DNA of 61,271 bases from Chloroflexota bacterium (lineage in GTDB: Bacteria; Chloroflexota; Limnocylindria; Limnocylindrales; CSP1-4). Below, piece after piece: positions 1-42,598 of this stretch. The DNA lies in NCBI GenBank assembly GCA_039931975.1, contig JBDTQW010000003.1, positions 1-61,271 of the forward strand. The letters run 5' to 3'. The position numbers and the translations under genes are program-made. The notes under the pieces were generated by a model that searched no databases, was not told the origin of the DNA, and saw nothing but the letters and a program-made list of their open reading frames with translations. Numbering within the stretch: position 1 is the first letter of the stretch; each line of letters starts with the position of its first letter.

Positions 1-697
1 TGTAGAGCGGAAGGGCGAACAGGAGCGTGGCCCACAGTCCGGCGCCGCCAGGCAGCCGCTCGTAGATCTGTGCCATCAACCAAGCGAGTGGCGCTAGCGC
101 AAAGAGGTTTGCCCAGTATCCGCGTGCATCTCCGAGGAGGACGAGTCGGAAGTCCAACCCATGCAGGAGGCTTACGCTGGCCGCCGTGATGACCACATTG
201 AGAAAAAAGCAGATACCGGCCATGACGATCGTCGCGGCGAAGCTAACCGCCGGTTCACTGGATACCCTGAGGATCGCCTCATAGGCGAAAGCACCGAGGA
301 TCGCCGGGAGGACGATGCCGGCGTGATTGAACAGGGAGCCATACCAAGGCACTCGTCCGCGAAGCTCGCGGACCTCAGTAGTCCCGAGCGCGGCCACCCA
401 CCCGGCCGCAGCCGGACCTCCCAGGATTGCCGCGGCAACAATCGGAGCCAGCGCGACGGATACAAGGGTCCCGCGCGGCATCCTAACCGGAAACGCCGAC
501 GCGAAGAGTGTGATCAGGACCCAAAATCCCACGCCCAAAAGTGCAAAGAGCGGGGTTGCTTGCTCGCTGACCGCGATCGACCGGCGCATCCCGAGGACGT
601 AGTCCGGTGCCCCAACAAAGACAAGACTCGTGACAACGAGTGCGATTGCACTCGCTCCCACGAGCCCTGCAATGTAGAACCTAAGTGCCTTCGGCAT
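1..697 (-). CDS. Multi-pass membrane sensor protein, N-terminal part only (runs off the window edge); resembles the MASE-type input domains that precede HD-GYP/GGDEF domains
   Basis: Not in the ORF track. ATG at 697 preceded by GGGACGAGGA, open for 232 codons to the edge. Translation MPKALRFYIAGLVGASAIALVVTSLVF...FWVLITLFASAFPVRMPRGTLVSVALAPIVAAAILGGPAAAGWVAALG...WYGSLFNHAG...WATLLFALPLY has many hydrophobic segments. Any catalytic domain lies outside the window. Confidence 0.8.
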   Translation of the reverse strand, partial: MPKALRFYIAGLVGASAIALVVTSLVFVGAPDYVLGMRRSIAVSEQATPLFALLGVGFWVLITLFASAFPVRMPRGTLVSVALAPIVAAAILGGPAAAGWVAALGTTEVRELRGRVPWYGSLFNHAGIVLPAILGAFAYEAILRVSSEPAVSFAATIVMAGICFFLNVVITAASVSLLHGLDFRLVLLGDARGYWANLFALAPLAWLMAQIYERLPGGAGLWATLLFALPLY

Positions 698-769
698 TCC
701 TCGTCCCTGAGATCCCGACCTCCCGGAACTCTAATCCCTCTGGTCAGGACTGGTTATGAGACTAAGGTC

Positions 770-859
770 CTAAAAGCCCCTTAGTGACGCAGCGCCAGCA
801 AGCGCGGCGGCGAGCACCGCGCCCAAGGCGACTACTGTTCGAAGGAAGCGGTCCTTCAT
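770..859 (-). CDS. 29-aa signal-peptide-like small protein MKDRFLRTVVALGAVLAAALAGAASLRGF
   Basis: Manual translation from ATG 859 to TAG 770. Basic n-region, 15-residue hydrophobic core, AxA motifs and a short polar tail. Below the ORF-track cutoff; its own SD is weak (AGTGGA). Confidence 0.65.
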   Translation of the reverse strand: MKDRFLRTVVALGAVLAAALAGAASLRGF

Positions 860-882
860 GGTTCCACTGGCTCTGTTTCTGG

Positions 883-915
883 TTACCAGGTCTTGGTAAA
901 CGTTTCGGTCGCCAC
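883..915 (-). CDS. 10-aa micro-ORF (V/M)ATETFTKTW
   Basis: GAGGAGGT (928-921) lies 5 nt before GTG 915; TAA at 885-883; ends 23 nt upstream of the 29-aa peptide ATG. Confidence 0.4.
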   Translation of the reverse strand: MATETFTKTW

Positions 916-952
916 GGTGTACCTCCTCGCGGCCCTCATGCCCTTAGAGACA

Positions 953-985
953 CGAAAACCGACCTGACTGGTAAGTCGGTCGGTT
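953..985 (-). terminator. Terminator-like hairpin (riboswitch expression platform)
   Basis: Minus-strand RNA AACCGACC-GACU-UACC-AGUC-A-GGUCGGUU followed by UUCG: 8 bp plus 4 bp with one bulge and a short U tract. The 5' arm is shared with the aptamer 3' end. Confidence 0.6.
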
Positions 986-1048
986 GCACTACTCGCTCCG
1001 CACCCACCCTAAGTGCCCATTTCAGGTGGGGCTTCCGCGCGTCCGAAC
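975..1048 (-). promoter_or_regulatory. c-di-GMP-II riboswitch aptamer
   Basis: Minus-strand RNA GUUCGG-A-CGC-GCGGAAG-CCCCACCU-GAAA-UGGGCACUU-AGGGUGGGU-GCGGA-GCG-A-GUAGUGCAACCGA-CCGAC. Carries the class II hallmarks UGGGCACUU and AGUAGUGCAACC, the GCACU/AGUGC pseudoknot, P1 UCGG/CCGA, P2 CGC/GCG, P3 CCCACCU/GGGUGGG, and kink-turn-like GAAG/GGA strands. Confidence 0.85.
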
Positions 1049-1093
1049 ATCTTGACATTGCTTCCCAGTACTTCCGTACTGAGTCGTGGCGGG

Positions 1094-1123
1094 ACTATAG
1101 GTAGCCCGAACTTCGCCGGTCAA
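1094..1123 (-). promoter_or_regulatory. sigma70-type promoter TTGACC-N18-TATAGT for the riboswitch/peptide transcript
   Basis: ggtcaa at 1118-1123 and actata at 1094-1099 on the + strand; overlaps the regulator stop codon. A CAGUAC-GGAA-GUACUG hairpin (1081-1066) would sit near the transcript 5' end. Confidence 0.6.
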
Positions 1124-4100
1124 TACGGCACCTTACCTATCGTCACAAGGCTCTCGAGTGACGGCGGCTCAATTCCTAGATCGTTTCGGAACGCGGCAGC
1201 GTAATGCCCGTAAAGCTCCGCGGCAGCCGATTGGGCGTCAGTTCGGACGTAGAGCCGAACGAGTGACAGCTGCATCTGCTCGGCCTTGGGGTCGGCCTCA
1301 AGGGCTCTCCTAGCCAGCCTGATCGCCCGATCGACTGCACCCGTGTTGGTATCAGCCGAAACAGCCCGTTCGATGATTTCCAAGTAGCTCGCGTGCATCG
1401 AGTCACGAAACTGCCCAGCCCAGTCCTCATATTCGAAGTCAAGGGCAAACCGACCCCGGTACGTCTCGCTCAGGCGTTCGACATTCTCGGGTGATGGATC
1501 TGCCTCGGCTTGGCGGATGGCCGCTCGCGACCGAGCAGATCGGCTGTCCACGAGCTCGGGATCCAGCCATAGCACATCAGAGTCATGGTGCAGGTAGTGA
1601 GGGGACGTATCGGCCGAGTAGGACGGCTCGAAGACACGGCGAAGGTGGTAGGCGGTTTGGTTCAGCGAGTTGACCGCGATCTTTGGAGCCTGCTCAGGCC
1701 ACAAGGCATCGAGCACCTGGTCCCGTGTCGCCGACAGGTTCGGGCGTGACAGAAGGAAACAAAAGAGCGCCAGCGCCATTCGACGCACTCCCGTGCTACC
1801 CAAGATATCCCTATCCCCGACTTGAATGGCCACGCGGCCCTGGTCCTCGACGACGATACGAGCAGCGAGCCGCCGGGCCAGTCCGCGACCTAGGCCAGCA
1901 GCCCCGTGCGATCTCCGGTGTTCCTTTGCGATGAGACGCAATGGGAGGACATCCTGGTGTTCACCGACCCGATCGAGGATTACGGCCGCCTCGAGTCTCA
2001 AACGTCGATCATCCCGATGGATGGCTTGCCTCAGTCCCTCTCTCCAGCGGTCCGGCATCCGAGCAGCCTCAGACGCTACCGATGCGAGGACTGCTGGATC
2101 GAGGAGCGGGAGCCGGTCGGTAACCAGCTCAGCGATCAGCGACAGGCTGGCTGGCCTATCGGCGACGACATGGCGCACGGCCTCGTTGAAGGCCGGCTGG
2201 TCATGAGTCGCCGCCTGGAGCACTCGGGCGCTGCAGGCGTAGAGACGTGCGCCTTGTCGTACTGCCAGGTTTAGAGCGTCGGACACGTCCTTGTCGGCTC
2301 CAGCTGACTTCGCCGCGACGGCGAGCCAGGCCCTGGTCAAGAGAAAACGGCTCATGAATGCCGCGACGGCGTGCGGACGATCGGTGGCGATGGCGTCGAG
2401 GCTCATCCGGGCCCCGTCGAGGTCGCCCCGACGCAACGCGAACATGGCAGACACCAGGTGCTGAAGATCGACGGTGGAGTCTGAGTTAAAGGGAGCTTCA
2501 GACGCCCGTAGCAGCGATCCTTCGCCCAGGAAGCGGTCGCCGAAGGCAGCATAGGCCTCCGCGATGAATGCCAGGGTCTCGCCCCTGACTGCGTCAAAGT
2601 CCTTCGATTCCGCTCGCTGAAACTCCTCGCGCGCCTCTTGCCATTCGCCTTGCTGCGCGAGGGCCCAACCCCGAAGAGCCATGGCAGCCTCAACCTCGAT
2701 CCCGGAAGATGTGGCCGATAGCTCTTGGATTGCTCTGGTCGATGCGGACAGTGCGCTCGCCGTATCGCCTCGGGCGCAGTCGATATCCGCGACATTGAGC
2801 CACGTGATTCCAACGTAGTGTCGGAGGCCGCTCGCCTCCTGTTCAGCCGCCATCTCTAGGAGCATGGTCCGTACTTCATCGAGGTTCGCAGTCGTCGAGC
2901 CGTCGAGGATTGCCACCACGGCTCTCGCGATTGCACGGACGATGCTCGAGGTCGTGCGAGTGGCCAACAGTTCTGCCACCTCGTGCTCAGTCTCCAGATC
3001 ACCACCGACATGCAGGACCGTGATCAGGTTGAGTAAAGCGTGGTCGGCGATGGTCGCCTGGTTCCAACTCATCGCTTTCTCGACAGCGAGCTCAGCGTGC
3101 TTGCGAGCGCTATCAGTGCGGCCACGGTAGAGGTCCATTCGCGAAACGAAGAGCTCGAAGGCTGCGTTGTTCTGGGCGCCGACCCGCAGAACGTAGGACT
3201 CGGCCAGGGCGAATTCGCCGGTACCCATGATGGTCGGTACTGCAGCCTGAACCACAGTGGCGAGATCAGCCATGTCGTCTGCGGCCGCGAAGTGGTAGGC
3301 CGCCAGGCGCCAGTCCGATGCGCCAGCGTGGCGAGCCACGGCTCGATGGAGATCTCTGGCAACGGCATCCCCGAGTGTGCGTCGCAGCCGCGATTCCAGG
3401 AACTCGCGCACGAGCGGGTGATACCGCCGGACCCCTCGGCGACTGGTTCCCCGCGTCGACAGGAGGCCGTATCGCTCCGTGGCAGCGATCAACTCTCTCG
3501 CACGAGTGGCCGGGAATCCACCGACGACCTCGGCCAGGGCCGGATCGACGGTCTGTAGCAGCGATGTAGTCATGAGGAAGCGTTGGGTCTCGTCGTCGAG
3601 ATCGCCGACCACCTCCTCGGCGAGGTAGTCGTACAACTCGCCTTGCGCCCCGCTCAAGCCCCGGACGAAGGTCCGGATCTCGCCGGGCGATCGGTCTCGC
3701 AGCGCTGCGTTGACCATCTCCAGGGAGGCTGCCCAGCCTTCCGTCCGATCGGCCAGGTCCGACAGCACATCCGGTTCCAGAGTCCGCTTATACGTCTCTC
3801 GGAATAGCCGCTCGGTCTCATCGAGGTCGAAACGGAGATCCGCGGCGTCGAGTTCCGCAACCTCACCGAGGGTCCGCAAGCGAGCCAATGGGACCGTGGG
3901 TGAAAGGCGAGACACGAACACGAGGGTGAGGCGCTCAGGAGCGCGGCTGATCAGCTGTTTGATCAGGACCCTGATATCGGGGACGTCGTCGACGAGGTGG
4001 TAGTCGTCGATAATCAGCGTGGCTCCCTTCGGGCCGAGGCTCTGGAGCTCCCTCATGAAGGTGGCGATGACCGTGTCGCGCGACGGGCCTGTCCCGACCC

Positions 4101-4626
4101 CGAGCTCGGTCAGCAGGCCCTTCGTCGCGGGCGCGAAGTCCGGCTTGATCTCCCGTCCGGCGGCAACCAGGTAGTGAAGAAAGCTCACCCAGTTGCGGTC
4201 GTCCTCGTCGAGCCGGTACCACATCGTCGGCCGTCGGTGATGGCGCGCGAAGTCGGCCAGCAGCGTCGTCTTGCCGTATCCAGCCTCGGCGGTGACGAGC
4301 ACGATCCGATGGTGGATCTTGACCTTCAGCCACGCGATCAGGCGTTCGCGACGCAGCGTTTCGCGCCGCAACGGCGGTCGCTGGACCTTCGCCGGTTGGA
4401 GCGGGAACTCGTGCAAGACGTCGCCGCCGATCGGGAGCGCAAGGCTGGGGCTGGATGCCGGTCGTCCCGGTCCGACAGGAACCGGTTCCCGCGCTCCCAG
4501 CTCGATGCGGGTCCCCGTGGACGGCCCCAACGATAAGGACCGGTTCTCCCTGGTGTCAACGCCGCGGTCGGCCAGGGGCGTTCTGTTGGGTTGGGCCATG
4601 TCGCCATAGTGGCGAGCGACGCTCAT
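1120..4626 (-). CDS. Large transcriptional regulator: MalT-like STAND ATPase, TPR-like helical region, C-terminal SARP module (OmpR-type wHTH + BTAD)
   Basis: Walker A AEAGYGKTTLL, Walker B LIIDDYH, MalT-like TEGWAASL and LYDYLAEEV motifs; C-terminal ATRDQVLDALWPE...LRRVF and YRGRFALDFEYEDW. Exact start uncertain. Confidence 0.85.
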   Translation of the reverse strand: MSVARHYGDMAQPNRTPLADRGVDTRENRSLSLGPSTGTRIELGAREPVPVGPGRPASSPSLALPIGGDVLHEFPLQPAKVQRPPLRRETLRRERLIAWLKVKIHHRIVLVTAEAGYGKTTLLADFARHHRRPTMWYRLDEDDRNWVSFLHYLVAAGREIKPDFAPATKGLLTELGVGTGPSRDTVIATFMRELQSLGPKGATLIIDDYHLVDDVPDIRVLIKQLISRAPERLTLVFVSRLSPTVPLARLRTLGEVAELDAADLRFDLDETERLFRETYKRTLEPDVLSDLADRTEGWAASLEMVNAALRDRSPGEIRTFVRGLSGAQGELYDYLAEEVVGDLDDETQRFLMTTSLLQTVDPALAEVVGGFPATRARELIAATERYGLLSTRGTSRRGVRRYHPLVREFLESRLRRTLGDAVARDLHRAVARHAGASDWRLAAYHFAAADDMADLATVVQAAVPTIMGTGEFALAESYVLRVGAQNNAAFELFVSRMDLYRGRTDSARKHAELAVEKAMSWNQATIADHALLNLITVLHVGGDLETEHEVAELLATRTTSSIVRAIARAVVAILDGSTTANLDEVRTMLLEMAAEQEASGLRHYVGITWLNVADIDCARGDTASALSASTRAIQELSATSSGIEVEAAMALRGWALAQQGEWQEAREEFQRAESKDFDAVRGETLAFIAEAYAAFGDRFLGEGSLLRASEAPFNSDSTVDLQHLVSAMFALRRGDLDGARMSLDAIATDRPHAVAAFMSRFLLTRAWLAVAAKSAGADKDVSDALNLAVRQGARLYACSARVLQAATHDQPAFNEAVRHVVADRPASLSLIAELVTDRLPLLDPAVLASVASEAARMPDRWREGLRQAIHRDDRRLRLEAAVILDRVGEHQDVLPLRLIAKEHRRSHGAAGLGRGLARRLAARIVVEDQGRVAIQVGDRDILGSTGVRRMALALFCFLLSRPNLSATRDQVLDALWPEQAPKIAVNSLNQTAYHLRRVFEPSYSADTSPHYLHHDSDVLWLDPELVDSRSARSRAAIRQAEADPSPENVERLSETYRGRFALDFEYEDWAGQFRDSMHASYLEIIERAVSADTNTGAVDRAIRLARRALEADPKAEQMQLSLVRLYVRTDAQSAAAELYGHYAAAFRNDLGIEPPSLESLVTIGKVPY

Positions 4627-4668
4627 CTGGCGCTTAGCTGACCCTATCGGCCCGAAGATCGGAGCCTC

Positions 4669-4872
4669 TCAGCCCTCGTATTCGAAGCCGATCTTGAGCT
4701 CGACCCGATACTCGACGATCTCATTGTCGTCGACGATGGCGCTCGACTTCACGACCTCGACGGTCCTGATATTGCGGACGGTCTTCGACGCCATGGCGAC
4801 GGCCACTCGTGCCGCGTCGGACCACGAGTTCGGGCTGGTCCCGACCATCTCCCGGATGATGATGACGCCCAT
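4669..4872 (-). CDS. Dodecin family flavin-binding protein
   Basis: 67 aa; VGTSPNSWSDAA...KTVRNI...EYRVELKIGF matches the dodecin pattern. Confidence 0.85.
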   Translation of the reverse strand: MGVIIIREMVGTSPNSWSDAARVAVAMASKTVRNIRTVEVVKSSAIVDDNEIVEYRVELKIGFEYEG

Positions 4873-4946
4873 GTGTGCCTCGCTCGTGCGCCGCGGACCG
4901 GCCCGAGCCAGTCCAGAACGGTCTGCTCAGTCTAGCCCGCAGGAAT

Positions 4947-4979
4947 CGAGAAGCCGACCTCGTCCAGGCCGGCTTCTCG
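4947..4979 (-). terminator. Stem-loop downstream of the zinc-ribbon gene, probable terminator
   Basis: Perfect 10-bp inverted repeat cgagaagccg (4947-4956) / cggcttctcg (4970-4979); weak U tract. Confidence 0.5.
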
Positions 4980-5001
4980 GGTGACCTCGCGGCACGCCGG
5001 A

Positions 5002-5304
5002 TCAGGCGGAGACGGCTCCTGCGGCAGCCGCGCGGACTTTGTCGAAGCAGGAGCTGCAATAGACCGGACGATCGTTGCGGGGGGCGAACGGGACGATCGC
5101 CTGGCCTCCGCATTCCCCACAGATCGCGGCGTGGAACTCGCGCGGGCTATCGCTCGAGCGAGCCCTCTTGGCGGCCGCCCGGCAGGACGGGCAGCGTTGC
5201 GGGTCGTTCTGAAGACCCTTGCTGGCAAAGAAGGTCTGCTCGCCGGAGGAGAACAGGAACTCGTCGGAGCAGTTGCGGCAGGTCAGTGTTCGATCTTGGT
5301 ACAC
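5002..5304 (-). CDS. Small zinc-ribbon protein (zf-trcl-like plus CxxC-x17-CxxC domain)
   Basis: MYQDRTLTCRNC...GEQTFF...PQRCPSCR...CGECG...PFAPRNDRPVYCSSCF. Confidence 0.9.
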   Translation of the reverse strand: MYQDRTLTCRNCSDEFLFSSGEQTFFASKGLQNDPQRCPSCRAAAKRARSSDSPREFHAAICGECGGQAIVPFAPRNDRPVYCSSCFDKVRAAAAGAVSA

Positions 5305-5560
5305 CCTGGTCCCTCGTCCGCATCAGGGATGACGGTGTCGATCGAACGGACTGGCTGGATTCGGGCGCGGCCGCTGGGGACGGTGACGCGGGCTCGACTC
5401 CGACCGTAGTGCCCGGACGGTCGCAATTCTGTCCGGCAGGATACGCGCCGAGTCAAGGGCTGGGGAATACAGCCATGTCCTGATTAGACCGGCTCCGTTG
5501 CGCATTGGCACCACGAGCGACCGTTGGGAACCCGATGGCCTGCGCTATCGTCCGGGCGAC

Positions 5561-6439
5561 ATGCCGAACGCCCGCCCTGCCACTTTTGCCTTGTCCACAG
5601 TCGTCCTGGCCGCGGCATGTGCGACCGGTGCGGCCTCACCGTCACCCATCCCGCCCACCCCGGCCCCGACCCTGGCGATCGAGCACGCCAAGGGCGCGAC
5701 CGACGTCGTCCTGCGCATGTCGACCGGGGGCGGCTTCGTCCCTGCTGGGTTTCTCCTGACCGAGGCACCCGAGTTCACCCTGTACGGCGACGGGACCGTC
5801 GTCTTCCGGAACCCGGCCAACGGTCCGGCGGCTCCTGTCCCCGACGATGGCGTGATCCGCAACGCGCCGTTCAGGACGGCGCGTCTGACCGAGGCCCAGG
5901 TCCAGGAGCTCCTCGAGTTCGCGATCGGCCCGAGCGGCCTGGGGATCGCCCGCGCCCAATACGACCCGTGCTGCGTCGCCGATGCGCCATCGACCACCTT
6001 CAACTTTCGGGCGGGCGGTCCGAACAAGGAGGTCACCGTCGGGGCCCTCGACTTCGACGATCCGCAACCGGGGCCGGACTCACTCGTGCGCAAGGCCTTC
6101 AAGGGACTCGCGGAGCGACTGCGCAACCTCGATCGGACTGGCGTCTCGTCGCCGGTCTTTGTGCCCGCGGCCTATCGGGGCGTCCTGTTCGAGGGCGGCG
6201 GTGGCCTCGCGGTACCGATCCGCGACTGGCCGTGGACGACCTTCGGTCCCGATGGATTCACTGCACCGGCCGACCCAAATGGCAATCAGACCCCGACCCG
6301 GACCTTGACCGCCGACGAGGTGGCTGCGTTGAAGATCAGCGGCCTCGAGGGCGGGGCTCAATCCATCGCGCTGCGGACCTCGAACGGAAAGATCCTCCTG
6401 CTCGGGCTCCGTCCGCTGCTGCCCGGCGAGAAGAGTTAG
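5561..6439 (+). CDS. Hypothetical lipoprotein
   Basis: ATG 5561; signal peptide ending LAAAC followed by a Pro/Thr linker; high GC at third codon positions. Confidence 0.7.
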   Translation: MPNARPATFALSTVVLAAACATGAASPSPIPPTPAPTLAIEHAKGATDVVLRMSTGGGFVPAGFLLTEAPEFTLYGDGTVVFRNPANGPAAPVPDDGVIRNAPFRTARLTEAQVQELLEFAIGPSGLGIARAQYDPCCVADAPSTTFNFRAGGPNKEVTVGALDFDDPQPGPDSLVRKAFKGLAERLRNLDRTGVSSPVFVPAAYRGVLFEGGGGLAVPIRDWPWTTFGPDGFTAPADPNGNQTPTRTLTADEVAALKISGLEGGAQSIALRTSNGKILLLGLRPLLPGEKS

Positions 6440-7788
6440 CCGGGCACGTCCGCGTAGCGCTCGCCGGCATAGGACACGAACCGGGTCTGGCGCTTCTTGA
6501 ACCAGAGCTGGACCTCACCGGTCGGCCCGTTGCGGTGCTTGGCGAGCTTGAGATTGATGACCTCGCCCTCCTGCTCTTGATCGTCCGTTCCGCGCTCCTT
6601 ATCCCGCCACAGGAACATCACCAGGTCGGCGTCCTGCTCGATCGCGCCCGACTCGCGGAGGTCCGAGAGTCGTGGCTCCTTGCTCTCGCGCATCTCCGGT
6701 TGGCGTGACAGCTGGGAGAGCGCGATGACCGGCACGGAGAGCTCGCGGGCGAGCGCCTTGAGCCCACGCGAGATCTCCGACACCTCCTGGACCCGGTTTG
6801 CGTCGCGGTTGGTCGTCGTCGCCTGCATCAGCTGGAGGTAATCGACGACGATGAGATCGAGTCCGGCCTCGGCCTGGAGCCGGCGAGCCTTGGTCCGAAG
6901 CTCCATCGCGGTGATGTTCGGTGTGTCGTCGATATAGACCGGTGCCTCCGAGAGCGCGTTCATCGCCGGGGCGAGCCGGGCGAAGTCCATCTCCTCGAGA
7001 AAGCCCGTGCGCAGCCGCTGCGAGTCGATGTTGGCGACGCTCGAAAGAAGACGCAGGACGAGCTGCTCCTTGCTCATCTCGAGGCTGAACACACCGACGC
7101 TCTTGCCCTCGGTCACCGCGGCGTATTCGGCGATATTGAGCGCGAAGCTCGTCTTGCCCACGCTTGGGCGGGCGGCCAGGACCACGAGGTCGCTCTTCTG
7201 GAGGCCGGTCGTCAGAGCGTCGAGATCGGCGAACCCGGTCCGGACTCCGCTGATCTCCCCTCGGTGAGCGTGGAGATAGTCGAGCCGGTCGTAGGCGTCG
7301 TGGAGAAGGGTCTTGAGCGGGCTGAAGCCGGTCGAGATTCGCCGCTGACTGACGTTGAAGAGCTCGCTCTCGGCGCGGTCGATCGCCTCCTGGATCTCTG
7401 CCGGATCCTCGTACCCGATGCCGGCGATCTTGCCCGCTGCGGAGATCAGGTTCCTGAGCACCGCCTTGCGCTCGACGATCCGGGCGTACTGAACGGCGTG
7501 AACCGCGGTCGGGGTCTGGTTGGACAGGCTCGAAAGGTATGACCGCCCACCGACCGTCTCGAGCTGGTCGCCCCGCTCGAGCGCCTCGGCCACGGTCACG
7601 ATGTCGACCGGCTCGCGCTTGTCGAACAGCTCGAGCATCGCGGCGTAGATCGAGCCGTTGGCTGGGCGGTAGAAGTCCTCCGGCCGCAGAAACTCCGCGA
7701 TCTCGACGACGGCGTCGCGGTCGATCAGGATCGAGCCGAGGACCGATTGCTCGGCCTCGGTGCTCTGGGGTGGCAGACGATCGATCAA
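6436..7788 (-). CDS. dnaB: Replicative DNA helicase
   Basis: LPPQSTEAEQSVLG N-terminus, AARPSVGKT Walker A, SLEMS, VVDYLQLM, LSQLSR, LSDLRESGAIEQDAD. Start set at TTG 7788 (ORF track extends to 7860). Confidence 0.97.
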   Translation of the reverse strand: MIDRLPPQSTEAEQSVLGSILIDRDAVVEIAEFLRPEDFYRPANGSIYAAMLELFDKREPVDIVTVAEALERGDQLETVGGRSYLSSLSNQTPTAVHAVQYARIVERKAVLRNLISAAGKIAGIGYEDPAEIQEAIDRAESELFNVSQRRISTGFSPLKTLLHDAYDRLDYLHAHRGEISGVRTGFADLDALTTGLQKSDLVVLAARPSVGKTSFALNIAEYAAVTEGKSVGVFSLEMSKEQLVLRLLSSVANIDSQRLRTGFLEEMDFARLAPAMNALSEAPVYIDDTPNITAMELRTKARRLQAEAGLDLIVVDYLQLMQATTTNRDANRVQEVSEISRGLKALARELSVPVIALSQLSRQPEMRESKEPRLSDLRESGAIEQDADLVMFLWRDKERGTDDQEQEGEVINLKLAKHRNGPTGEVQLWFKKRQTRFVSYAGERYADVPG

Positions 7789-7860
7789 GGCACACCGAAT
7801 CTGGCGGAGGGGAGTGACAGGTCGAGTGTCATCGACGGGATGGGTGGGCCGGTCAACCAA

Positions 7861-7880
7861 GCGGTCCGCCCAGGGACCGC
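7861..7880. terminator. 7-bp hairpin between lexA and dnaB
   Basis: gcggtcc-gcccag-ggaccgc; on the minus strand followed by UUGGUU. Confidence 0.35.
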
Positions 7881-7937
7881 TGCGTCCACCAAAGTGCCGG
7901 TCGTGTTGGCCGATTGTGGACGGGCCTGTGGACAGGC

Positions 7938-8588
7938 CTAGTCGAGGCGGCGGATGACTCCGATGAGCTTGCCCTGGATGCGCACGTCGTCGTAGTACAT
8001 CGGCTCGTACTCGGCGTTGGCCGGCTGGAGGCGGATGCGGCCCTGTTCCTTGAAGAAGCGCTTGAGGGTGACTGCGTTCTCCTCGACCTGGGCCACGATG
8101 ATGTCGCCGTTACGAGCGGTGGTCTGCGGTCGGATGACGACGAAGTCCCCATCGGCGATATGGGCCTCGATCATCGAATCCCCGCGGACCCGCAGCACAT
8201 AGGCATCTCCGCTGGGTGCGAAGACATCGGGCACGGCCAAGGTCTCGTCCGCTCGCTGGTAGGCCTCGATCGGGCCACCTGCAGCGATCTCACCGATGAT
8301 CGGCAGAAGATGCGCCTCGGTTGCGGCGGACTGCGGGGTGAGCTCGCTCGACAACCCCAGCTCGATCGCAGCCATGGGGGTGAGCCGGATCGCTCGAGCC
8401 TGGGCAGCGCCTCGCTCGAGGAAGCCCTCGCGCTCGAGGATCTGGAGATGATGGTGGACCGCCGAGGTCGACGCGAGACCGACCGCGCGAGCGATCTCCC
8501 GGACCGACGGTGGGACGCCGCTGGTGCGCAGGGTCGCGGCGATGTAATCGAGGATCCTGACCTTGCGGTCCGCATCGTGCTTGGTCAT
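7938..8588 (-). CDS. lexA: SOS repressor LexA
   Basis: PPSVREIARAVGLASTSAVHHHL HTH, IAAG cleavage site, VRGDSMIEAHI catalytic Ser, VTLKRF catalytic Lys; SD GGAGG before ATG 8588. Confidence 0.97.
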   Translation of the reverse strand: MTKHDADRKVRILDYIAATLRTSGVPPSVREIARAVGLASTSAVHHHLQILEREGFLERGAAQARAIRLTPMAAIELGLSSELTPQSAATEAHLLPIIGEIAAGGPIEAYQRADETLAVPDVFAPSGDAYVLRVRGDSMIEAHIADGDFVVIRPQTTARNGDIIVAQVEENAVTLKRFFKEQGRIRLQPANAEYEPMYYDDVRIQGKLIGVIRRLD

Positions 8589-8607
8589 CGGGCCTCCATG
8601 TGGCCTC

Positions 8608-8636
8608 ACCGTACCGAACGGACGTTCGATTGTCAA
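8608..8636 (-). promoter_or_regulatory. lexA promoter TTGACA-N17-TACGGT with SOS box CGAAC-GGAC-GTTCG (8615-8628) in the spacer
   Basis: tgtcaa 8631-8636 and accgta 8608-8613 on the + strand; GAAC-N4-GTTC palindrome between them. Confidence 0.85.
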
Positions 8637-8753
8637 GCGACGGGGAACGGGATTCCGGCGGCGACACGCACGACTGCTAGACTGCGCAGTCCCGACGCGT
8701 GACCTCGGATCGGTCGCGTCGGGGCGACCGTGCGAAGGAGGATCGCGAGCCAC

Positions 8754-9254
8754 ATGGCGCGACGGAAACGGCGGATGCCGGGCGCGAGTCTGAACCGGAT
8801 GCTGGCGATGGCCGCCCTGTTGCCGACGGCCAGTCGCTCGGCGGTCTACGCCCGGCTGGTTTGGGCGCTGATCAACGACGATCGTGTCCCGGCCTCGCGC
8901 AAGGCGCTCCTCGGTGGGGCGCTGGTCTACTTCGCCCTGCCGTTCGATATCGTCCCCGATGGGGTCCCCGTGCTCGGGGTTCTCGACGACCTGGTCGTGG
9001 TGGTCCTGGGGGTGGACCTGTTCTTCGATGGTATCCCCGCCGAGATCCTCGACGAGAAGCTGGCCGACCTCGGGATCGATCGGGCTGCCTTCGAGCACGA
9101 CCTGGGTCAGATCCGGCGGCTCACTCCTCACCCCGTTCGCCGGCTCGCCCGGCGGATCCCCCCGGCGATCGGGGTCGTCGTCCAGGCGGCCCGCGCTTCA
9201 GGCCTCGGGCCGCGGGTCCGCGGCTGGATCGACAAGGAGGGTTCGTTCGCGTGA
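8754..9254 (+). CDS. DUF1232/YkvA family membrane protein
   Basis: ALVYFALPFDIVPDGVPVLGVLDDLVVV motif; AAGGAGG upstream. Confidence 0.85.
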   Translation: MARRKRRMPGASLNRMLAMAALLPTASRSAVYARLVWALINDDRVPASRKALLGGALVYFALPFDIVPDGVPVLGVLDDLVVVVLGVDLFFDGIPAEILDEKLADLGIDRAAFEHDLGQIRRLTPHPVRRLARRIPPAIGVVVQAARASGLGPRVRGWIDKEGSFA

Positions 9255-9697
9255 AGGTCATCCTGACCGGCGATGTCGACAAGCTGGGGAAGAGCGGCGA
9301 GATGAAGGTCGTGGCGGACGGCTACGCCCGCAACTTCCTCATCCCAAAGCGGCTGGCCGTACCCGCCGAGGGCGGTGCCTACCGTGCCTGGCAGCACGAC
9401 ATCGCAAGCCGCGAGGACAAGCGGCGGCGTGAGCGCGAAGAGGCCGAGATCTACGCCACCCGGATCGCCTCGACCACCCTGACGATGGGGGTCAAGGTCG
9501 GCGACGGCGGCAAGCTCTATGGCTCGATCACGTCCAAGGACATCGCCGATGCCCTGGGCCGGCGCGGGATCGTCATCGACCGCCACAAGGTCGATCTCGA
9601 GGAACCGCTGAAGAGCCTCGGCACCTACAAGGTCGCAGTCAAGGTCTTCAGCGGGATGGCCCCGGAGGTCACGATCATCGTCGAGCCGAAGGGCTAG
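9251..9697 (+). CDS. rplI: 50S ribosomal protein L9
   Basis: MKVILTGDVDKLGKSGEMKVVADGYARNFLIPKRLA...GKLYGSITSKDIA, 148 aa; GTGA overlap with the upstream gene. Confidence 0.97.
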   Translation: MKVILTGDVDKLGKSGEMKVVADGYARNFLIPKRLAVPAEGGAYRAWQHDIASREDKRRREREEAEIYATRIASTTLTMGVKVGDGGKLYGSITSKDIADALGRRGIVIDRHKVDLEEPLKSLGTYKVAVKVFSGMAPEVTIIVEPKG

Positions 9698-10992
9698 AAG
9701 TCGACGAAGCTGATGGAGATCGCCCAGAGGGCGTAGGCGCAGATCGCCACCGACGCGACGGCCGCCGCCCACGCCCAGCGTGACATTCCGCGCTCGAACA
9801 CGGTCGCCAGGATGACGAACAGTAGCGGTTGGACGTCGAGACTGAAGCGATAGCCGAACTGGGTGAGCCCCACGTTGCCGTGGGTGACGATCGGGATGAG
9901 CGCGAGCGTAATGCCGATGGCGGCCCAGGCCACCCGCGGATCGCGCAATCGGGCCTTGCCGAGCCACAGGAGCAGCGGTGTCGTCAGGAACGGCGACAGG
10001 CCCCACCAGGATGGCTGGAAGAACGGCGCGTCGTCGACGTAGTTCCAGCTCCGCAGGAAGATCGCATGGAGATGGCGGGGGATGTACTCGAAGGCGAGGA
10101 TCCCATGCTTGGCATAGATCGGGTCCTGGAGCACGCCGGGGATGAGAACGTAGCTCTGGTCGACGACCGTGCCCCAACGGGCGATGTTGTAGAGCAGGTA
10201 GACGGCGGTCGGGATCGCGATGCCGATGAGGAAGGCCAGGCCGGCCCGAATCGCGGCCTCGCGCTCCCCCCGGGCCGGTAATCGGGGTGGCCGCCCCAGC
10301 CCGATGACGAACGCGAAGAAGAACGGAGCGGTGAGGCCGACCGGCAGGCGCGAGATCGCGGCGCAGCCGAGGAGCAGGCCGACCAGCAACGGCCAGCGCT
10401 TCTCGAACAGGAGCAGGAGCGCGGCCATGCTGAACATGACCGCCACGACGTGGCTTATGTACCAGACCGAGCCGACCTCGGCTACGTACCACAGGACCGT
10501 CCCGAAGCCGAACACGACGGTCAGCGCCAGCCGGACCCGACCTGACAGTGCGAAGCGCCCGAAGACCAGCCAGGCCAGCCCGACGGCGATCCCGCCGAAC
10601 AGGCAGCTGGCGACCTGTTGATGGAACCCGGGACCGAAGATGGCTACGAACGGGACGAGCAGGAAGGCCGGCATCGGCGGGTAAGCGACGTACCAGCCGC
10701 CATCTTTAGGGATGAGCTCGTTGAGCCACGATGGCGCCTCGGTCAGATAGATGCGGCCGTGAAGGAAGGCGTCGGCCAGGCGCACGAAGTAATCGAGCTC
10801 CTGGCGACCGCCCGAGGAGCTCAGCAGGTACAGGGCGAACGTGGCCGCGACGATGACCAGGGTGCCAAGGGTGTCCGGCCGCCGGCGGACCGGGTCGAAG
10901 ATCTGAGCCAGGCGCGTGTCACCGAACCAGCCGACGAGCCGGGCGTACCCGGCGGCACGCTGGTCGGCTCGCCGCTCCTCGAGGTGGGCCAT
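9694..10992 (-). CDS. Polytopic membrane protein, GT-C-type glycosyltransferase-like
   Basis: About 10-12 hydrophobic segments with YFVRLADAFLHG, YVAYPPMPA and FGYRFSLDV loop motifs. Confidence 0.7.
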   Translation of the reverse strand: MAHLEERRADQRAAGYARLVGWFGDTRLAQIFDPVRRRPDTLGTLVIVAATFALYLLSSSGGRQELDYFVRLADAFLHGRIYLTEAPSWLNELIPKDGGWYVAYPPMPAFLLVPFVAIFGPGFHQQVASCLFGGIAVGLAWLVFGRFALSGRVRLALTVVFGFGTVLWYVAEVGSVWYISHVVAVMFSMAALLLLFEKRWPLLVGLLLGCAAISRLPVGLTAPFFFAFVIGLGRPPRLPARGEREAAIRAGLAFLIGIAIPTAVYLLYNIARWGTVVDQSYVLIPGVLQDPIYAKHGILAFEYIPRHLHAIFLRSWNYVDDAPFFQPSWWGLSPFLTTPLLLWLGKARLRDPRVAWAAIGITLALIPIVTHGNVGLTQFGYRFSLDVQPLLFVILATVFERGMSRWAWAAAVASVAICAYALWAISISFVDF

Positions 10993-11017
10993 CGGGCCGA
11001 AGATACACTCTCGGACC

Positions 11018-12253
11018 ATGAGCGCGGACGCCAACCCCGGCCACGGAACCGTCGGCGGCGCATGGGCCGGGCTGGGTGCCGGGCTCGGGCCGGCGTTGCG
11101 CGACGCGATCGGGTTGTTCCTGTCCCTCCGCGTCGTTTTCGGTCTCTTCGCGATCTACCTGTGGTGGCAGGGGGGACTGGCCGGCCCGTGCCACTTCGAG
11201 CTTGCCCGCAACGGCTGGGAAACGATCCCGCCGTTGGCCGATCAGGGCGCGGCGTTCCCGCTGGTCGGTGTCTGGCAACGCTGGGACGCCTGCTGGTACA
11301 CCAAGATCGCAACCTACGGCTACGAGGCCCCGAACAGCGTCAGCTTCTTCCCGCTGTTCCCGCTCCTGACTGGGCTGGCCGGCCGGATCCTGCTCGGCGC
11401 GATGGCCCTTGGTGGGCTGGCCGTCGCCGGCGCGGCCTACGTCGCAGCGATGACCGGGCTGCGACGCCTGGTCGCGGACGACTTCGACGACGACGTGGCA
11501 CAGACGACGGTCGTGGCCATCTCGATCTTCCCGACCGCTTTCTTCTTCTTCGCCCCCTTCACGGAGTCGCTCTTCCTGGCCAGTGCGGTCTGGGCCATCC
11601 TCGCCGCCCGTCAACGTTCGTGGTCGATCGCCGCGATCGCCGGCCTCCTCGCCGCGCTGACCCGGACCCAGGGCCTGTTCCTGGTGCTGCCGCTTGGCTG
11701 GGAGGTGGCCATGGCCTGGCGCGAGGCGGGCTGGGGGATTGGGGGTCGCTGGCGTCCGCCGCCAGGTACGTTCCCGCTTCCGGTCCTCGCTGCCTTGGCC
11801 CCCGTGGTCGGCTTCGCGGCGTTCCTCGCCTTCTCGGCCGCGGTCGTGGGTGAGATCCCGATCGACACCGCGGCGGCGTGGGGTGGCACGAACTTCCATC
11901 CGCCCTGGGAGGTGATCGACGCGTCGTGGCGTTGGGCGATCGAGCACCGTGATCCGCTCCAGGCATTCAACCTGGCCATGCTGATCCTGTTCGCCCTGGT
12001 CACACTCGTCGGTTTGCGCCAGGTCCCGCTCGCCTATTCCCTGTTCGCCATCCCCCAGATCGCGCTGATCGGGACACGGATCCAGCCGATCCCGTTGACC
12101 TCGACGGGGCGCTACCTCCTGGTCGTCTTTCCGGTCTTCGTGATCCTGGCGCTTGTCCCTGGACGCTGGCTGCGGTTCGGTTGGGCGGTCGCCTCGACGA
12201 TGTTCCTGGCCCTGCTGCTCGCCGACTACCTCCAGGGCACCTTCGTGGCATGA
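11018..12253 (+). CDS. GT-C mannosyltransferase-like membrane protein (PIG-V/PMT-like)
   Basis: WQRWDACWYTKIA..GY, FFPLFPLL, FFFAPFTESLFL, STGRYLLVVFP motifs. Confidence 0.85.
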   Translation: MSADANPGHGTVGGAWAGLGAGLGPALRDAIGLFLSLRVVFGLFAIYLWWQGGLAGPCHFELARNGWETIPPLADQGAAFPLVGVWQRWDACWYTKIATYGYEAPNSVSFFPLFPLLTGLAGRILLGAMALGGLAVAGAAYVAAMTGLRRLVADDFDDDVAQTTVVAISIFPTAFFFFAPFTESLFLASAVWAILAARQRSWSIAAIAGLLAALTRTQGLFLVLPLGWEVAMAWREAGWGIGGRWRPPPGTFPLPVLAALAPVVGFAAFLAFSAAVVGEIPIDTAAAWGGTNFHPPWEVIDASWRWAIEHRDPLQAFNLAMLILFALVTLVGLRQVPLAYSLFAIPQIALIGTRIQPIPLTSTGRYLLVVFPVFVILALVPGRWLRFGWAVASTMFLALLLADYLQGTFVA

Positions 12254-13512
12254 GGACGATCCTCCACGTCGACCTCGACGCGTTCTTCGCCGCCGTCGAG
12301 CAGCGTGACCGTCCGGAGCTAAGCGGCAAGCCCGTCATCGTCGGCGGCGGCGACCCCACCGCGCGCGGTGTGGTCAGCGCGGCGTCCTACGAGGCTCGGC
12401 AGTTCGGGGTCCACTCGGCGATGCCCCTGCGCACGGCCTACGCCCTCTGCCCGAGGGGCGTGTTCCTGCCGGTCGACGGACGCAAGTACCAGTCGGTCAG
12501 TCGCGAAGTCATGACCATCCTGCGGACATTCACACCGCTGGTCGAGCCGATCTCGATCGACGAGGCGTTCCTGGACGTGACCGCATCGCGGGCATTGTTC
12601 GGCGACGGGCCGACGATCGGGGCCGCGATCAGGGCGAAGGTCGACCAGGACGTGGGCCTCACCGTCTCGGTCGGGGTCGCCACGACCAAGCTCGTGGCCA
12701 AGATCGCGTCCGACCTGCGCAAGCCCGACGCCCTGGTCGTCGTGCCGCCAGGCGAGGAGGCGGCATTCCTGGCGCCCCTCGCGATCTCCCGGCTCTGGGG
12801 CGTCGGTGAGAAGACCGCTGCGGCGCTCGCCGAGTACGGCGTGACGACGATCGGCGACCTGGCTGCTCTCTCCGATGAGCTCCTGGTTCGCCGGTTCGGC
12901 AAGCACGGGGCTTCGCTCGGGACCCGGGCTCGCGGGCTCGATCCGGATCCGGTCGGCGGCGGCGATCCGGCCAAGTCGATCGGGCACGAGCACACCTTTG
13001 ATGTCGATACCTCCGACAGCGACACCATCGAGCGAACCCTCCTGGCGATGGCCGACGGCGTGGCGGCGCGACTTCGGTCAGCGGGGCTCAAGGCCGGCAC
13101 GGTCCAGGTCAAGATCCGCGACTCTAGCTTCCGTACGATCACCCGCCAGCGGACTCTGCCCGACCCGACCGACCAGACCGAGTCGATCTGGAAGGTCGCC
13201 CTCGAGCTCGCGCGTCCGGAGATGCGCGGCCTGCGGATCCGGCTCCTGGGGGTCACCGCCAGCCACCTCGGCGAGCGTCAGCAGATGGGCATGTTCGACG
13301 AAGGCCCCGGGGCGGCCGGGGGCGATCGCCGGCGCCGGGCGACCCAGGCCGCAGACGCCGTCCGCCGGCGGTTCGGAGACGGGGCCATGACCCGGGCCCG
13401 CTTGCTGGGCGCCGGCCTGCCCGCGCCTTTCGAGCGCGATCCGATGAAAGCCGTCGAGCGACGAACCGGGATGCGCGATCCGGACGCTCCGCCCGAGGGC
13501 GAACACGACTGA
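12250..13512 (+). CDS. dinB: DNA polymerase IV (Y family)
   Basis: ILHVDLDAFFAAVEQ, SAASYEAR, SIDEAFLD, KIASDLRKPD; ATGA overlap with the upstream gene. Confidence 0.96.
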   Translation: MRTILHVDLDAFFAAVEQRDRPELSGKPVIVGGGDPTARGVVSAASYEARQFGVHSAMPLRTAYALCPRGVFLPVDGRKYQSVSREVMTILRTFTPLVEPISIDEAFLDVTASRALFGDGPTIGAAIRAKVDQDVGLTVSVGVATTKLVAKIASDLRKPDALVVVPPGEEAAFLAPLAISRLWGVGEKTAAALAEYGVTTIGDLAALSDELLVRRFGKHGASLGTRARGLDPDPVGGGDPAKSIGHEHTFDVDTSDSDTIERTLLAMADGVAARLRSAGLKAGTVQVKIRDSSFRTITRQRTLPDPTDQTESIWKVALELARPEMRGLRIRLLGVTASHLGERQQMGMFDEGPGAAGGDRRRRATQAADAVRRRFGDGAMTRARLLGAGLPAPFERDPMKAVERRTGMRDPDAPPEGEHD

Positions 13513-13567
13513 GCCCTGGTGACAGGCAACCTGTCACGAAGCCGCGCCAATCTGTGCGCAGAAGGGC

Positions 13568-13621
13568 TTGACATCGAACAGGTGTTCGGTCTAGTGTCAG
13601 GTCGAAGAGAACAGACGTTCT
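13568..13621 (+). promoter_or_regulatory. Promoter TTGACA-N18-TAGTGT with two SOS boxes (CGAAC-AGGT-GTTCG 13575-13588; AGAAC-AGAC-GTTCT 13608-13621)
   Basis: Read directly from the sequence; same GAAC-N4-GTTC motif as in the lexA promoter. Confidence 0.88.
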
Positions 13622-13678
13622 GTCGCCGACGTGCCCGGGGCGACGACCAGGTCGCTGCCGAGCGAAGGAGTCGAAGAC

Positions 13679-13948
13679 ATGGCGATGATCCGAATGGAAC
13701 CCACCCTGGTCCGGGTCCGGACCGACTGGTTCGATGGGCGTCCGCGCGAAGTGACGTGGGGCAATGAGCGCCTTCCGGTCACCGCCCTCGCCGCCGTGCG
13801 TCACGAGGACTCGGCCTACCCGATCGAAGTCGGCCCGCGGACGGTGTTCGAGGTCGTGACCCCCAAGGCTCGGCTGGCGCTGAGCTTCCAGCATCGCTCG
13901 CGACGCTGGACCATCGAGGGCCTCGACGAGGATCGCCCCGCCGCCTGA
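13679..13948 (+). CDS. 89-aa hypothetical protein, predicted LexA-regulated
   Basis: SD AAGGAG, ATG 13679; MAMIRMEPTLVRVRTDWFDGRPREVTWG...RWTIEGLDED; coding-like codon bias. Confidence 0.8.
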   Translation: MAMIRMEPTLVRVRTDWFDGRPREVTWGNERLPVTALAAVRHEDSAYPIEVGPRTVFEVVTPKARLALSFQHRSRRWTIEGLDEDRPAA

Positions 13949-14158
13949 CAGACCAGCTGGCGCCCGGGTCGTCGATCCTCCCAACGTCGGCCCGAACGGG
14001 ACCCTCGCCGGGCGAGTGCGCCGGTACCGCGCTCGTCCGGCGGGTGCGTCCGTCCTGGCGGCGCCCCGGAATGAGCCTGAGCAACGGAGCGCATCGTTGG
14101 GGCGCGGCCCTCGCGCCGTGGGACGCGAGAGGCCGCTGGGCGCGCCTACAATCGGCTC

Positions 14159-14827
14159 GTGGAGACGAGATCGCAGGGCTTCCGGGACCGGACGCTCGCC
14201 CAGTTCGTCGACGATCTCGCGTCGGATGCGCCGGTGCCGGGGGGTGGGAGCGCGTCCGCGGTGGCGGCGTCGCTCGGCGCGGCCCTCGTGGCCATGGTCG
14301 CGGCACTGTCGGCCGGGCGGCCGCGATACGCCGAGCACGCAGCGGTCCACGAGGCCGCAGGCGCCCGCGGGCGCGAACTGGCTGACCGATTCCTCACCCT
14401 GGCCGACCGCGACGCCGACGCGTACGCCGATTTCGCCGCGGTCCTCAAGATGCCCAAGGAGACAGAGGCCGAGAAGCTCGCACGGACGACGGCACTTCGG
14501 GCGGCTGCCCGGATCGCTGCCGAGGTCCCGCTCGCCTGTGTCGAGGCGTGCCGCGAGCTGGTGGTCGCGGCGGAGATGCTCGCCGGACGGAGCAACGCCA
14601 ATGCGGCCAGCGACCTGTCGGTCGCGAGCCTGCTTACCGAGGCCGCCGCCAAGGGTGCCGCGGCGAACGTCCTTGTCAACCTGCCCTCCGTCGGCGACGA
14701 CGCCTACGCGAGCGAGATGACCACCCGGGTCGAGAGCCTGCTCGCCGACGTCGTGTCGATCACCTCCTCCATCCGCGCGGTCGTCGCATCCGGTGTGGCG
14801 CGCAGTGCGCTCCCGATGGACGCCTGA
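14159..14827 (+). CDS. fchA: Formiminotetrahydrofolate cyclodeaminase / cyclohydrolase family (FTCD C-terminal domain)
   Basis: LASDAPVPGGGSASA...MVAALS, NAASDL..A..L, NVLVNL motifs. Confidence 0.88.
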   Translation: METRSQGFRDRTLAQFVDDLASDAPVPGGGSASAVAASLGAALVAMVAALSAGRPRYAEHAAVHEAAGARGRELADRFLTLADRDADAYADFAAVLKMPKETEAEKLARTTALRAAARIAAEVPLACVEACRELVVAAEMLAGRSNANAASDLSVASLLTEAAAKGAAANVLVNLPSVGDDAYASEMTTRVESLLADVVSITSSIRAVVASGVARSALPMDA

Positions 14828-14832
14828 TCGCG

Positions 14833-17438: not shown

Positions 17439-17444
17439 AGGCGC

Positions 17445-17663
17445 TCAGCGGACGGTGGCGACCAGGTTGGCCAGGATGAATGCCCACGCGACCGCGAAGC
17501 CGAGCGCCACCCCGAGGAGGCCGGCTCCCCAGGCGGCCCAGTCGACCGGCCCGAGCGCGGCATCCTCATGACCGTGGTCGTCGTGACCGTGGGTCGAGCC
17601 GTGGTCCCCGAGTCCGTGCGGCTCCCCGGCCATCGGCGGATCGCTCGCGTGCGGCTGGCTCAT
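17445..17663 (-). CDS. 72-aa membrane protein with His-rich N-terminus
   Basis: SD GAGGTGAGG; HGLGDHGSTHGHDDHGHED followed by one hydrophobic helix. Confidence 0.65.
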   Translation of the reverse strand: MSQPHASDPPMAGEPHGLGDHGSTHGHDDHGHEDAALGPVDWAAWGAGLLGVALGFAVAWAFILANLVATVR

Positions 17664-17712
17664 CTTGGGCTGCCTCACCTCCGAACGCATTCTGGCAGAT
17701 AGACTCCGACGG

Positions 17713-42521: not shown

Positions 42522-42598
42522 GCCCCCATCGTCTAGAGGCCTAGGACGCCACCCTTTCAAGGTGGAGATCAGGGGTTCGAATCCCCTTGGGGGCACCA
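42522..42598 (+). tRNA. tRNA-Glu (anticodon TTC), CCA encoded
   Basis: Acceptor GCCCCCA/TGGGGGC, anticodon arm CCACC-CTTTCAA-GGTGG, T arm AGGGG-TTCGAAT-CCCCT, then ACCA; TGCTAGACT extended -10 at 42502-42510. Confidence 0.97.

Follow-up and report, generated by a model that had tools for sequence, protein, structure and literature searches.

Does a leader RNA in an uncultured soil bacterium of the Chloroflexota sense cyclic di-GMP (c-di-GMP), in which direction would it switch, and what would it control? The question arises at 953..1048 on the minus strand of the 61,271-nucleotide (nt) contig JBDTQW010000003.1 (contig C3 of assembly GCA_039931975.1), where a c-di-GMP-II riboswitch with ON logic had been predicted. 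The whole contig was analysed and is called the window below. Its source genome (2.65 Mb in 145 contigs, about 77% complete) was placed in the CSP1-4 family of Candidatus Limnocylindria. Our analysis showed that a class II c-di-GMP aptamer lies in the 5′ leader, on the sense strand, ahead of a c-di-GMP-linked HD-GYP gene. We consider it probable, from the predicted folds, that the riboswitch responds to high c-di-GMP by turning on a c-di-GMP-degrading operon. What is unusual is the rest of the leader, with its post-decision hairpin, two conserved micro-open reading frames (micro-ORFs) and an enzyme start that is predicted to be masked.

The aptamer and its spread

The window was scanned against Rfam 15 by cmscan at the curated cut-offs, and the element in question was found as follows.

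Positions 969..1053, minus strand: c-di-GMP-II aptamer, full-length match to RF01786

The match scored 59.9 bits (gathering score 53.5; E value 7.8e-11) and covered model positions 1-84 of 84; a local rescan gave an E value of 1.8e-12. This model search is the check that the original prediction had itself named. The predicted span proved about right, except that the aptamer begins at 1053, 5 nt further upstream. When positions 1..1400 were scanned permissively against Rfam, no second RNA family was found in the leader, and a chance match to a long non-coding RNA (E value 0.66) was the only return.

The class II signatures UGGGCACUU (1019..1011) and AGUAGUGCAACC (993..982), and the pseudoknot in which GCACU (1016..1012) is complementary to AGUGC (990..986), are present as they had been quoted. 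The paired region P2 is formed by CGC (1041..1039) with GCG (996..994), P3 by GCCCCACC with GGUGGG-GC, and P1 by four contiguous pairs only, UCGG (1046..1043) with CCGA (979..976). In the alignment of the window, P2, P3 and each highly conserved block fit RF01786 with standard pairs throughout; the only pairs that cmscan flagged as non-standard were 5 of the 11 in P1 of the model, all of them outer ones. Among 143 unique relatives, P2, inner P3 and the pseudoknot were 95-100% paired, and the outer P1 positions of the model were unpaired across the lineage. So short a helix is not at odds with ligand-dependent switching. The CGC/GCG helix had been interpreted as a pairing-preserving replacement of a clostridial AAC/GUU. 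P2 is indeed paired, and its first pair is A14-U60 in 3Q3Z, the crystal structure of the Clostridium acetobutylicum c-di-GMP-II aptamer (PMC13715770).

In 3Q3Z, A69 and G73 recognise the two guanines of the ligand, between which A70 intercalates, and the first P2 pair provides the stacking surface for the ligand backbone (PMC13715770). The counterpart of this pocket in the window, GCAACCG (987..981), is intact. Its segment AACCG (985..981) is invariant across the 143 relatives, and GUGCAACCG (989..981) and GCG-A-GUAG are likewise present in the window and invariant. At the pocket ceiling, the A after P2 is present and invariant, and A69, A70 and G73 are canonical and invariant in the relatives. 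The window thus shares with the RF01786/3Q3Z class P2, P3, the pseudoknot, the three recognition nucleotides and the invariant blocks, as well as a 5′-leader location before a c-di-GMP turnover gene. It differs in its P1 of four pairs, its C-G first P2 pair, the A at its pocket floor and its host, which belongs to the Limnocylindria and is not a clostridium. Class II (Lee et al. 2010) has been associated with genes of c-di-GMP synthesis and degradation (PMC12564702). The aptamer is almost certainly a genuine class II c-di-GMP aptamer; its fold is canonical, and we infer that c-di-GMP is its ligand.

Some features of the aptamer weigh against so simple an assignment. P1 is short. The pseudoknot is invariant, so that it shows no covariation within the lineage, and the compensatory changes seen elsewhere in the aptamer are few, some being G-C to A-U in P3; the fold is therefore supported chiefly by the Rfam model. 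Where 3Q3Z has A-U as its first P2 pair, the window has C-G, and in an engineered c-di-GMP-II variant the change from A-U to G-C at this pair shifted the selectivity between isomers of cyclic GMP-AMP (cGAMP) (PMC13715770), so that specificity is not guaranteed. After G73, at the pocket floor and opposite A12, the window has A in place of the weakly conserved g of the Rfam consensus. The differences at the first P2 pair and the floor, together with the engineered variant, would favour a c-di-GMP-II fold bound by some other ligand, for example 3′,3′-cGAMP or pGpG. We regard this as quite improbable, as A69, A70 and G73 are canonical and the Rfam consensus itself has a g-c first P2 pair along with its weakly conserved floor g. 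In addition, RF01786 was retained over two overlapping matches of lower score to families of its clan, and the controlled gene is of the HD-GYP type in a genome rich in GGDEF genes. c-di-GMP accordingly stays the expected ligand.

The original prediction had considered a high-GC copy notable for a class best known from Clostridia, and one review describes class II as predominantly clostridial (PMC12564702). This taxonomic surprise fails. Among the named control genomes, that of Deinococcus radiodurans, which is also high-GC, was matched by RF01786. In an even sample of the phylum, matches were found in 73 of 301 Chloroflexota genomes and in 53 of 172 genera (43 genomes above the cut-off). Within the family, 33 of the 37 genomes had a match, and in 28 of the 37 it was above the Rfam cut-off and at the same locus, so the match in the window is not due to chance. 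A covariance-model search of the source genome found this single copy; the small-genome sister family gave no match in 24 genomes. A literature search on c-di-GMP-II together with Chloroflexi found no paper. Class II sensing of c-di-GMP is therefore common in Chloroflexota, at about a quarter of the sampled genomes, and is not a matter of Clostridia only. The riboswitch alone is a routine addition to a known class, in an uncultured lineage of soil and freshwater Limnocylindria.

Four genomes of the family (G019, G022, G008 and G018) each contained 7-16 extra and weaker RF01786-like matches (28-53 bits), which could be an expanded and diverged subfamily. At locus L029, the pseudoknot of an RF01786-like match has compensating changes (GGCCGCC with GGCG), and the match precedes the gene of a signal-peptide protein, not the micro-ORF cassette described below.

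Two hairpins and the direction of the switch

The sign of the switch was read from the nucleotides that follow and overlap the 3′ end of the aptamer.

Positions 957..985, minus strand: terminator-like hairpin T, AACCGACCGACU, loop UACC, AGUC, bulged A, GGUCGGUU (-16.0 kcal/mol)
Positions 951..958, minus strand: U run and tail, UUUUCGUG, its first two U forming the last two stem pairs of T
Positions 931..960, minus strand: second hairpin H2, GGUUUUCGUGUCU-CUAA-GGGCAUGAGGGCC, covarying

Hairpin T has 12 pairs, 8 of them G-C, and one bulged A. As had been predicted, its 5′ arm is the 3′ end of the aptamer, and U residues follow it. This arm consists of pocket nucleotides and the P1 3′ strand and begins exactly at the two pocket adenines. 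The bound aptamer and T are therefore mutually exclusive, and this exclusion predicts an ON switch. T starts at the pocket A residues, with -14 to -17 kcal/mol, in 28 of 29 family copies, which were located by the covariance model and are thus unbiased by our own search pattern. The secondary structure of the aptamer alone was calculated at -17.1 kcal/mol, against -29.1 kcal/mol for the state containing T, and the unconstrained minimum free energy (MFE) fold of the leader contained T and not P1 or P2. This indicates that the default state is OFF. The same MFE fold pairs GGACGCG of the aptamer with CGUGUCU, located after the U run, which may be incidental.

All four class II switches of Clostridioides difficile are positively controlled by c-di-GMP (PMC3649979), so the ON logic of the original prediction, whose identification of the element was correct, is expected rather than new. 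Two of these switches, Cdi2_3 and Cdi2_4, lie upstream of CD2831 and of the pilin gene CD3513, and give short leader transcripts at low c-di-GMP and full-length mRNA at high c-di-GMP (PMC3649979). Positive control was measured there, whereas the same behaviour is only predicted for the switch in the window. The targets also differ, being adhesin and pilus genes in C. difficile and a phosphodiesterase here, and no translated micro-ORFs have been described between switch and gene for Cdi2_3 or Cdi2_4, whereas the leader in the window has two. The sign is deduced from an overlap of secondary structures only, which leaves some room for an OFF switch, in which binding of c-di-GMP would lower expression of the operon. 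Such an inversion is highly improbable: T takes its 5′ arm from the nucleotides that contact the ligand and from the P1 3′ strand, so that a bound aptamer excludes T; no separate antiterminator element lies upstream; and the known class II switches act positively (PMC3649979).

Control at the level of translation was also considered for the first micro-ORF, whose Shine-Dalgarno sequence is GAGGAGG. No anti-Shine-Dalgarno partner for it was found in the aptamer, T, H2 or the leader, and translational control of this micro-ORF by the switch was rejected. Since nothing was found that could mask its Shine-Dalgarno sequence, transcription attenuation is the only output that the anatomy offers.

H2 overlaps the last 4 nt of the T 3′ arm and the whole U run. 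It could be formed in the same register, with 12-14 pairs, in all 87 unique relatives. The H2 of the window had an energy of -17.1 kcal/mol against -7.5 kcal/mol for shuffled sequences (z -5.3; median z over the relatives -4.6), and the RNAalifold consensus of 35 diverse sequences gives it 13 pairs, of which 7 show compensatory double changes. In this consensus of the read-through RNA, H2 takes the place of the four basal pairs of T, those that hold AACC. The polymerase has to pass the U run before the 3′ arm of H2 is synthesised. H2 is therefore no classical antiterminator and concerns the read-through RNA only. It appears to capture the unused terminator arm and, on this model, would lock the ON fold; it may also be a stabilising stem 2 nt before the Shine-Dalgarno sequence of the first micro-ORF, or a processing site.

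Several observations count against intrinsic termination at T. The U run is short, with 4 U of which two lie inside the stem, and it varies among relatives (UUUUCG, UUUCCG, UUCUCG or UUUUUG), being weaker than a textbook U tract. What conservation it has could reflect pairing in H2 instead. Canonical hairpin-plus-U terminators were not enriched, with 6 found in positions 1-20000 and 6.4 expected from shuffles; the organism may rely on weak-tail or factor-dependent termination. A simple consensus scan for terminators did not call T, because of its bulge and short tail, and T was judged by folding and conservation. These points could be taken to mean that the aptamer is genuine and T is no intrinsic terminator, the ligand acting on RNA processing, stability or later folding, for example on the balance between T and H2. 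That H2 pairs each U of the run with a purine in all 87 relatives, that H2 displaces the basal pairs of T, that the U run takes forms such as UUCUCG and UUUCCG and that canonical terminators are not enriched all speak for this alternative. We nevertheless hold it to be unlikely. The 3′ arm of H2 is transcribed too late to compete during the termination decision, T covers no Shine-Dalgarno sequence or start codon and the aptamer releases none, and a stable GC-rich stem abutting UUUU is the usual design of an attenuator. High-GC bacteria often use short U tracts. Attenuation at T, relieved by c-di-GMP, remains our preferred explanation.

Micro-ORFs, enzyme start and operon

Beyond the hairpins, the leader continues into two small reading frames, a folded spacer and the enzyme gene.

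Positions 922..928, minus strand: Shine-Dalgarno sequence GAGGAGG of micro-ORF 1, separated from H2 by 2 nt and from the GTG start codon by 6 nt
Positions 883..915, minus strand: micro-ORF 1, MATETFTKTW-stop, 10 codons with a GTG start, a conserved peptide
Positions 770..859, minus strand: micro-ORF 2, MKDRFLRTVVALGAVLAAALAGAASLRGF-stop, 29 codons, signal-peptide-like
Positions 698..769, minus strand: structured spacer of 72 nt, predicted from the MFE folds of 77 relatives
Positions 2..697, minus strand: membrane HD-GYP phosphodiesterase gene, N-terminal 232 codons, cut by the contig end

GAGGAGG is conserved in the relatives at positions -12 to -8. Among about 113 full-length leaders, micro-ORF 1 has ten codons in 75 and nine codons in 13. 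Several leaders have a six-codon form (for example MTVKSW), and most of the remaining ones show single-base frame breaks, which we suspect to be assembly indels. The consensus of the peptide is M-x-P-[ED]-x-x-x-K-[GPAST]-[WFY]-stop. Its Pro and Glu/Asp codons are free at the third position, its Lys is invariant, and its last codon is UGG, UUC or UAC. The idea that the K-x-W-stop end is an RNA hairpin and not coding was rejected, as the variable codon encodes small residues through many codons; third-position variation and the alternation of the last codon also rule it out. In several species (L161, L170, L017/L168 and L159) the C-terminal unit of micro-ORF 1 is repeated in tandem and in frame, as in MEIQSVTKGF-TSVTKGF-TSVTKGF and MTAESAKGW-TPVSAKGW.

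Micro-ORF 2 has a basic N-terminus, a hydrophobic core, an A-x-A site and an eight-residue tail, which is GAASLRGF in the window. It ends in ...A-[LI]-A-G-G-A-S-L-[RK]-G-F-stop in 94 of 111 leaders, and it matched no family in Pfam or NCBIfam. Both micro-ORFs share the ending Lys/Arg-small-aromatic-stop. The last five residues are identical between the two peptides in 11 of 79 species (TLKGF, SLKGF or SIKGF); in the window, the endings differ (FTKTW vs SLRGF). The position of the micro-ORFs past the decision point and the conservation of their peptides point to peptide products or coupling, not to sensing.

The second family of the class (L171-L176) was seen to have a different platform, in which the Shine-Dalgarno sequence of micro-ORF 1 lies in a CAGAAG-AGGGCAC-CUUCUG hairpin abutting the AUG. 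There both micro-ORFs end in K-G-W, as in MARKVIKGW and ...AGGASFKGW.

In the MFE folds, the ribosome-binding region of the HD-GYP gene is, in 49 of 56 unique sequences, base-paired to the final codons of micro-ORF 2 and to the 20 nt or so that follow; in the window itself, CCUUAGUCUC pairs with GGGACGAGG. The spacer forms a long closed domain, and its inner hairpin has a conserved loop of the GGGAUUAGAGUYCC type (UAGAGU) in relatives L051-L170. No Rfam family matches the domain. The prediction is that a ribosome ending micro-ORF 2 would open the helix masking the HD-GYP start, which would amount to translational coupling.

The part of the HD-GYP protein encoded in the window is its polytopic membrane N-terminus only, with a weak MASE9 match (E value 4e-4) below the cut-off. 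Over all 232 residues it is 67% identical to a 476-amino-acid (aa) orthologue in L044, whose C-terminal half matches HD_5 (E value 1.5e-38) and has the motifs HDVGK and HHEWYNGSGYP. The missing C-terminal part of the gene lies on another contig (C145:2491-2898) and is 92% identical to the same orthologue. It counts against our account of the operon that the gene is split over two contigs, the assembly breaking inside it, so that continuity in the source genome is deduced from relatives. On the long contigs of 20 relatives, the order is micro-ORF 1, micro-ORF 2, the HD-GYP gene (about 470 aa) and a gene for a DUF5317-MFS fusion (about 684 aa), and the cassette also follows the riboswitch in the second family of the class. 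The source genome has 16 GGDEF matches above the cut-off and 7 matches of HD-GYP type, which indicates that c-di-GMP signalling exists in it.

Upstream of the aptamer, the following features were identified.

Positions 1094..1123, minus strand: predicted sigma-70-type promoter, TTGACC (1123..1118), an 18-nt spacer and TATAGT (1099..1094)
Positions 1064..1083, minus strand: 5′-proximal hairpin, CUCAGUAC-GGAA-GUACUGGG, located after the predicted transcription start and before the aptamer
Positions 1120..4626, minus strand: regulator gene, 1168 aa, STAND ATPase-TPR-wHTH-BTAD (Pfam AAA_22/AAA_16, TPR, Trans_reg_C and BTAD)

The putative promoter lies 41 nt upstream of the aptamer and has 10 of 12 consensus matches, with 0.1 expected in shuffles; TTGACN-N17-19-TAnnGT is found at the same distance in 27 of 29 relatives. 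In the 5′-proximal hairpin, the core GUAC-N4-GUAC is kept in relatives and the flanks vary yet pair (CUGGUAC/GUACUAGG and CUAGUAC/GUACUAG). This element may act as an RNA stem that stabilises the 5′ end or as a DNA operator. The regulator has its winged helix-turn-helix (wHTH) domain, which is OmpR-type, and its BTAD domain at the C-terminus, and its gene is syntenic in relatives, where the conserved coding sequence of its C-terminus lies directly upstream of the promoter. In the window, the stop codon of the gene (1122..1120) is overlapped by the -35 hexamer. This regulator may activate the riboswitch promoter. Elsewhere in the window, a transfer RNA gene at 42522-42595 on the plus strand (65.9 bits) was the only other Rfam match above the cut-off.

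The proposed circuit and its meaning

In the circuit that we propose, the conserved promoter (1123..1094) would drive transcription of both leader and operon. Without ligand, AACCG and the 4-nt P1 3′ strand would pair with GUC-A-GGUCGGUU to form the 12-bp hairpin beside UUUU, and most transcripts would end near position 955. With c-di-GMP bound, P1, the pseudoknot and the pocket would retain the nucleotides of the arm, T would be blocked, and RNA polymerase would read through. The freed GGUU and the U run would then be captured in H2 (960..931), 2 nt before the strong Shine-Dalgarno sequence, where the role of H2 may be to lock the ON fold or to stabilise the message. The 10-codon ORF and then the 29-codon ORF would be translated. 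The predicted pairing partner of the end of the latter is the ribosome-binding site of the HD-GYP gene, which would be translated by coupling. The net effect would be negative feedback, in which high c-di-GMP induces its own HD-GYP hydrolase; it is the HD-GYP gene downstream of a predicted ON switch that gives the circuit its homeostatic logic, and the original prediction had not taken the downstream genes into view.

The c-di-GMP-I (GEMM) riboswitches, found before genes of diguanylate cyclases and phosphodiesterases (Sudarsan et al. 2008, as summarised in PMC12564702), share the ligand and the idea of turnover feedback. Their aptamer fold is unrelated, and the best match of the window is RF01786, not GEMM. 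A different parallel concerns the order of the leader. The Mg2+ leader of Salmonella mgtA contains the short ORF mgtL inside its switching region, and translation of mgtL changes the fold. The leader in the window has in common with it the order of ligand-sensing RNA, short translated ORF and main gene. It differs in that its micro-ORFs come after the decision point and have conserved peptide sequences.

Phr/RRNPP-type secreted signalling peptides are known in Bacillota, and micro-ORF 2 resembles their precursors by analogy only, as a precursor of about 29 aa, nearly all of it signal peptide apart from a short and conserved C-terminal tail. The two share no sequence homology, and an RRNPP receptor gene is lacking; the candidate receptor here would be the neighbouring membrane HD-GYP protein, and export and cleavage are putative. 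A further proposal is that c-di-GMP switches on two co-evolving micro-proteins together with the membrane HD-GYP protein and the DUF5317-MFS transporter, the peptides being exported ligands or subunits that set the activity of the MASE9-like sensor. This proposal is tentative, and on balance we doubt it. The cassette on which it is built is conserved across at least two Limnocylindria families. Its products would be a leaderless decapeptide ending in Lys-small-Trp/Phe/Tyr and a 29-mer whose predicted tail ends in Arg/Lys-Gly-Phe. If true, such a module would link intracellular c-di-GMP to a peptide signal.

For the Limnocylindria, the leader is a clean predicted example of homeostatic feedback on c-di-GMP. 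As mapped here, it is a compact and testable system, in which the decision of a riboswitch would be relayed through translational coupling and the micro-peptides may be partners of the phosphodiesterase.

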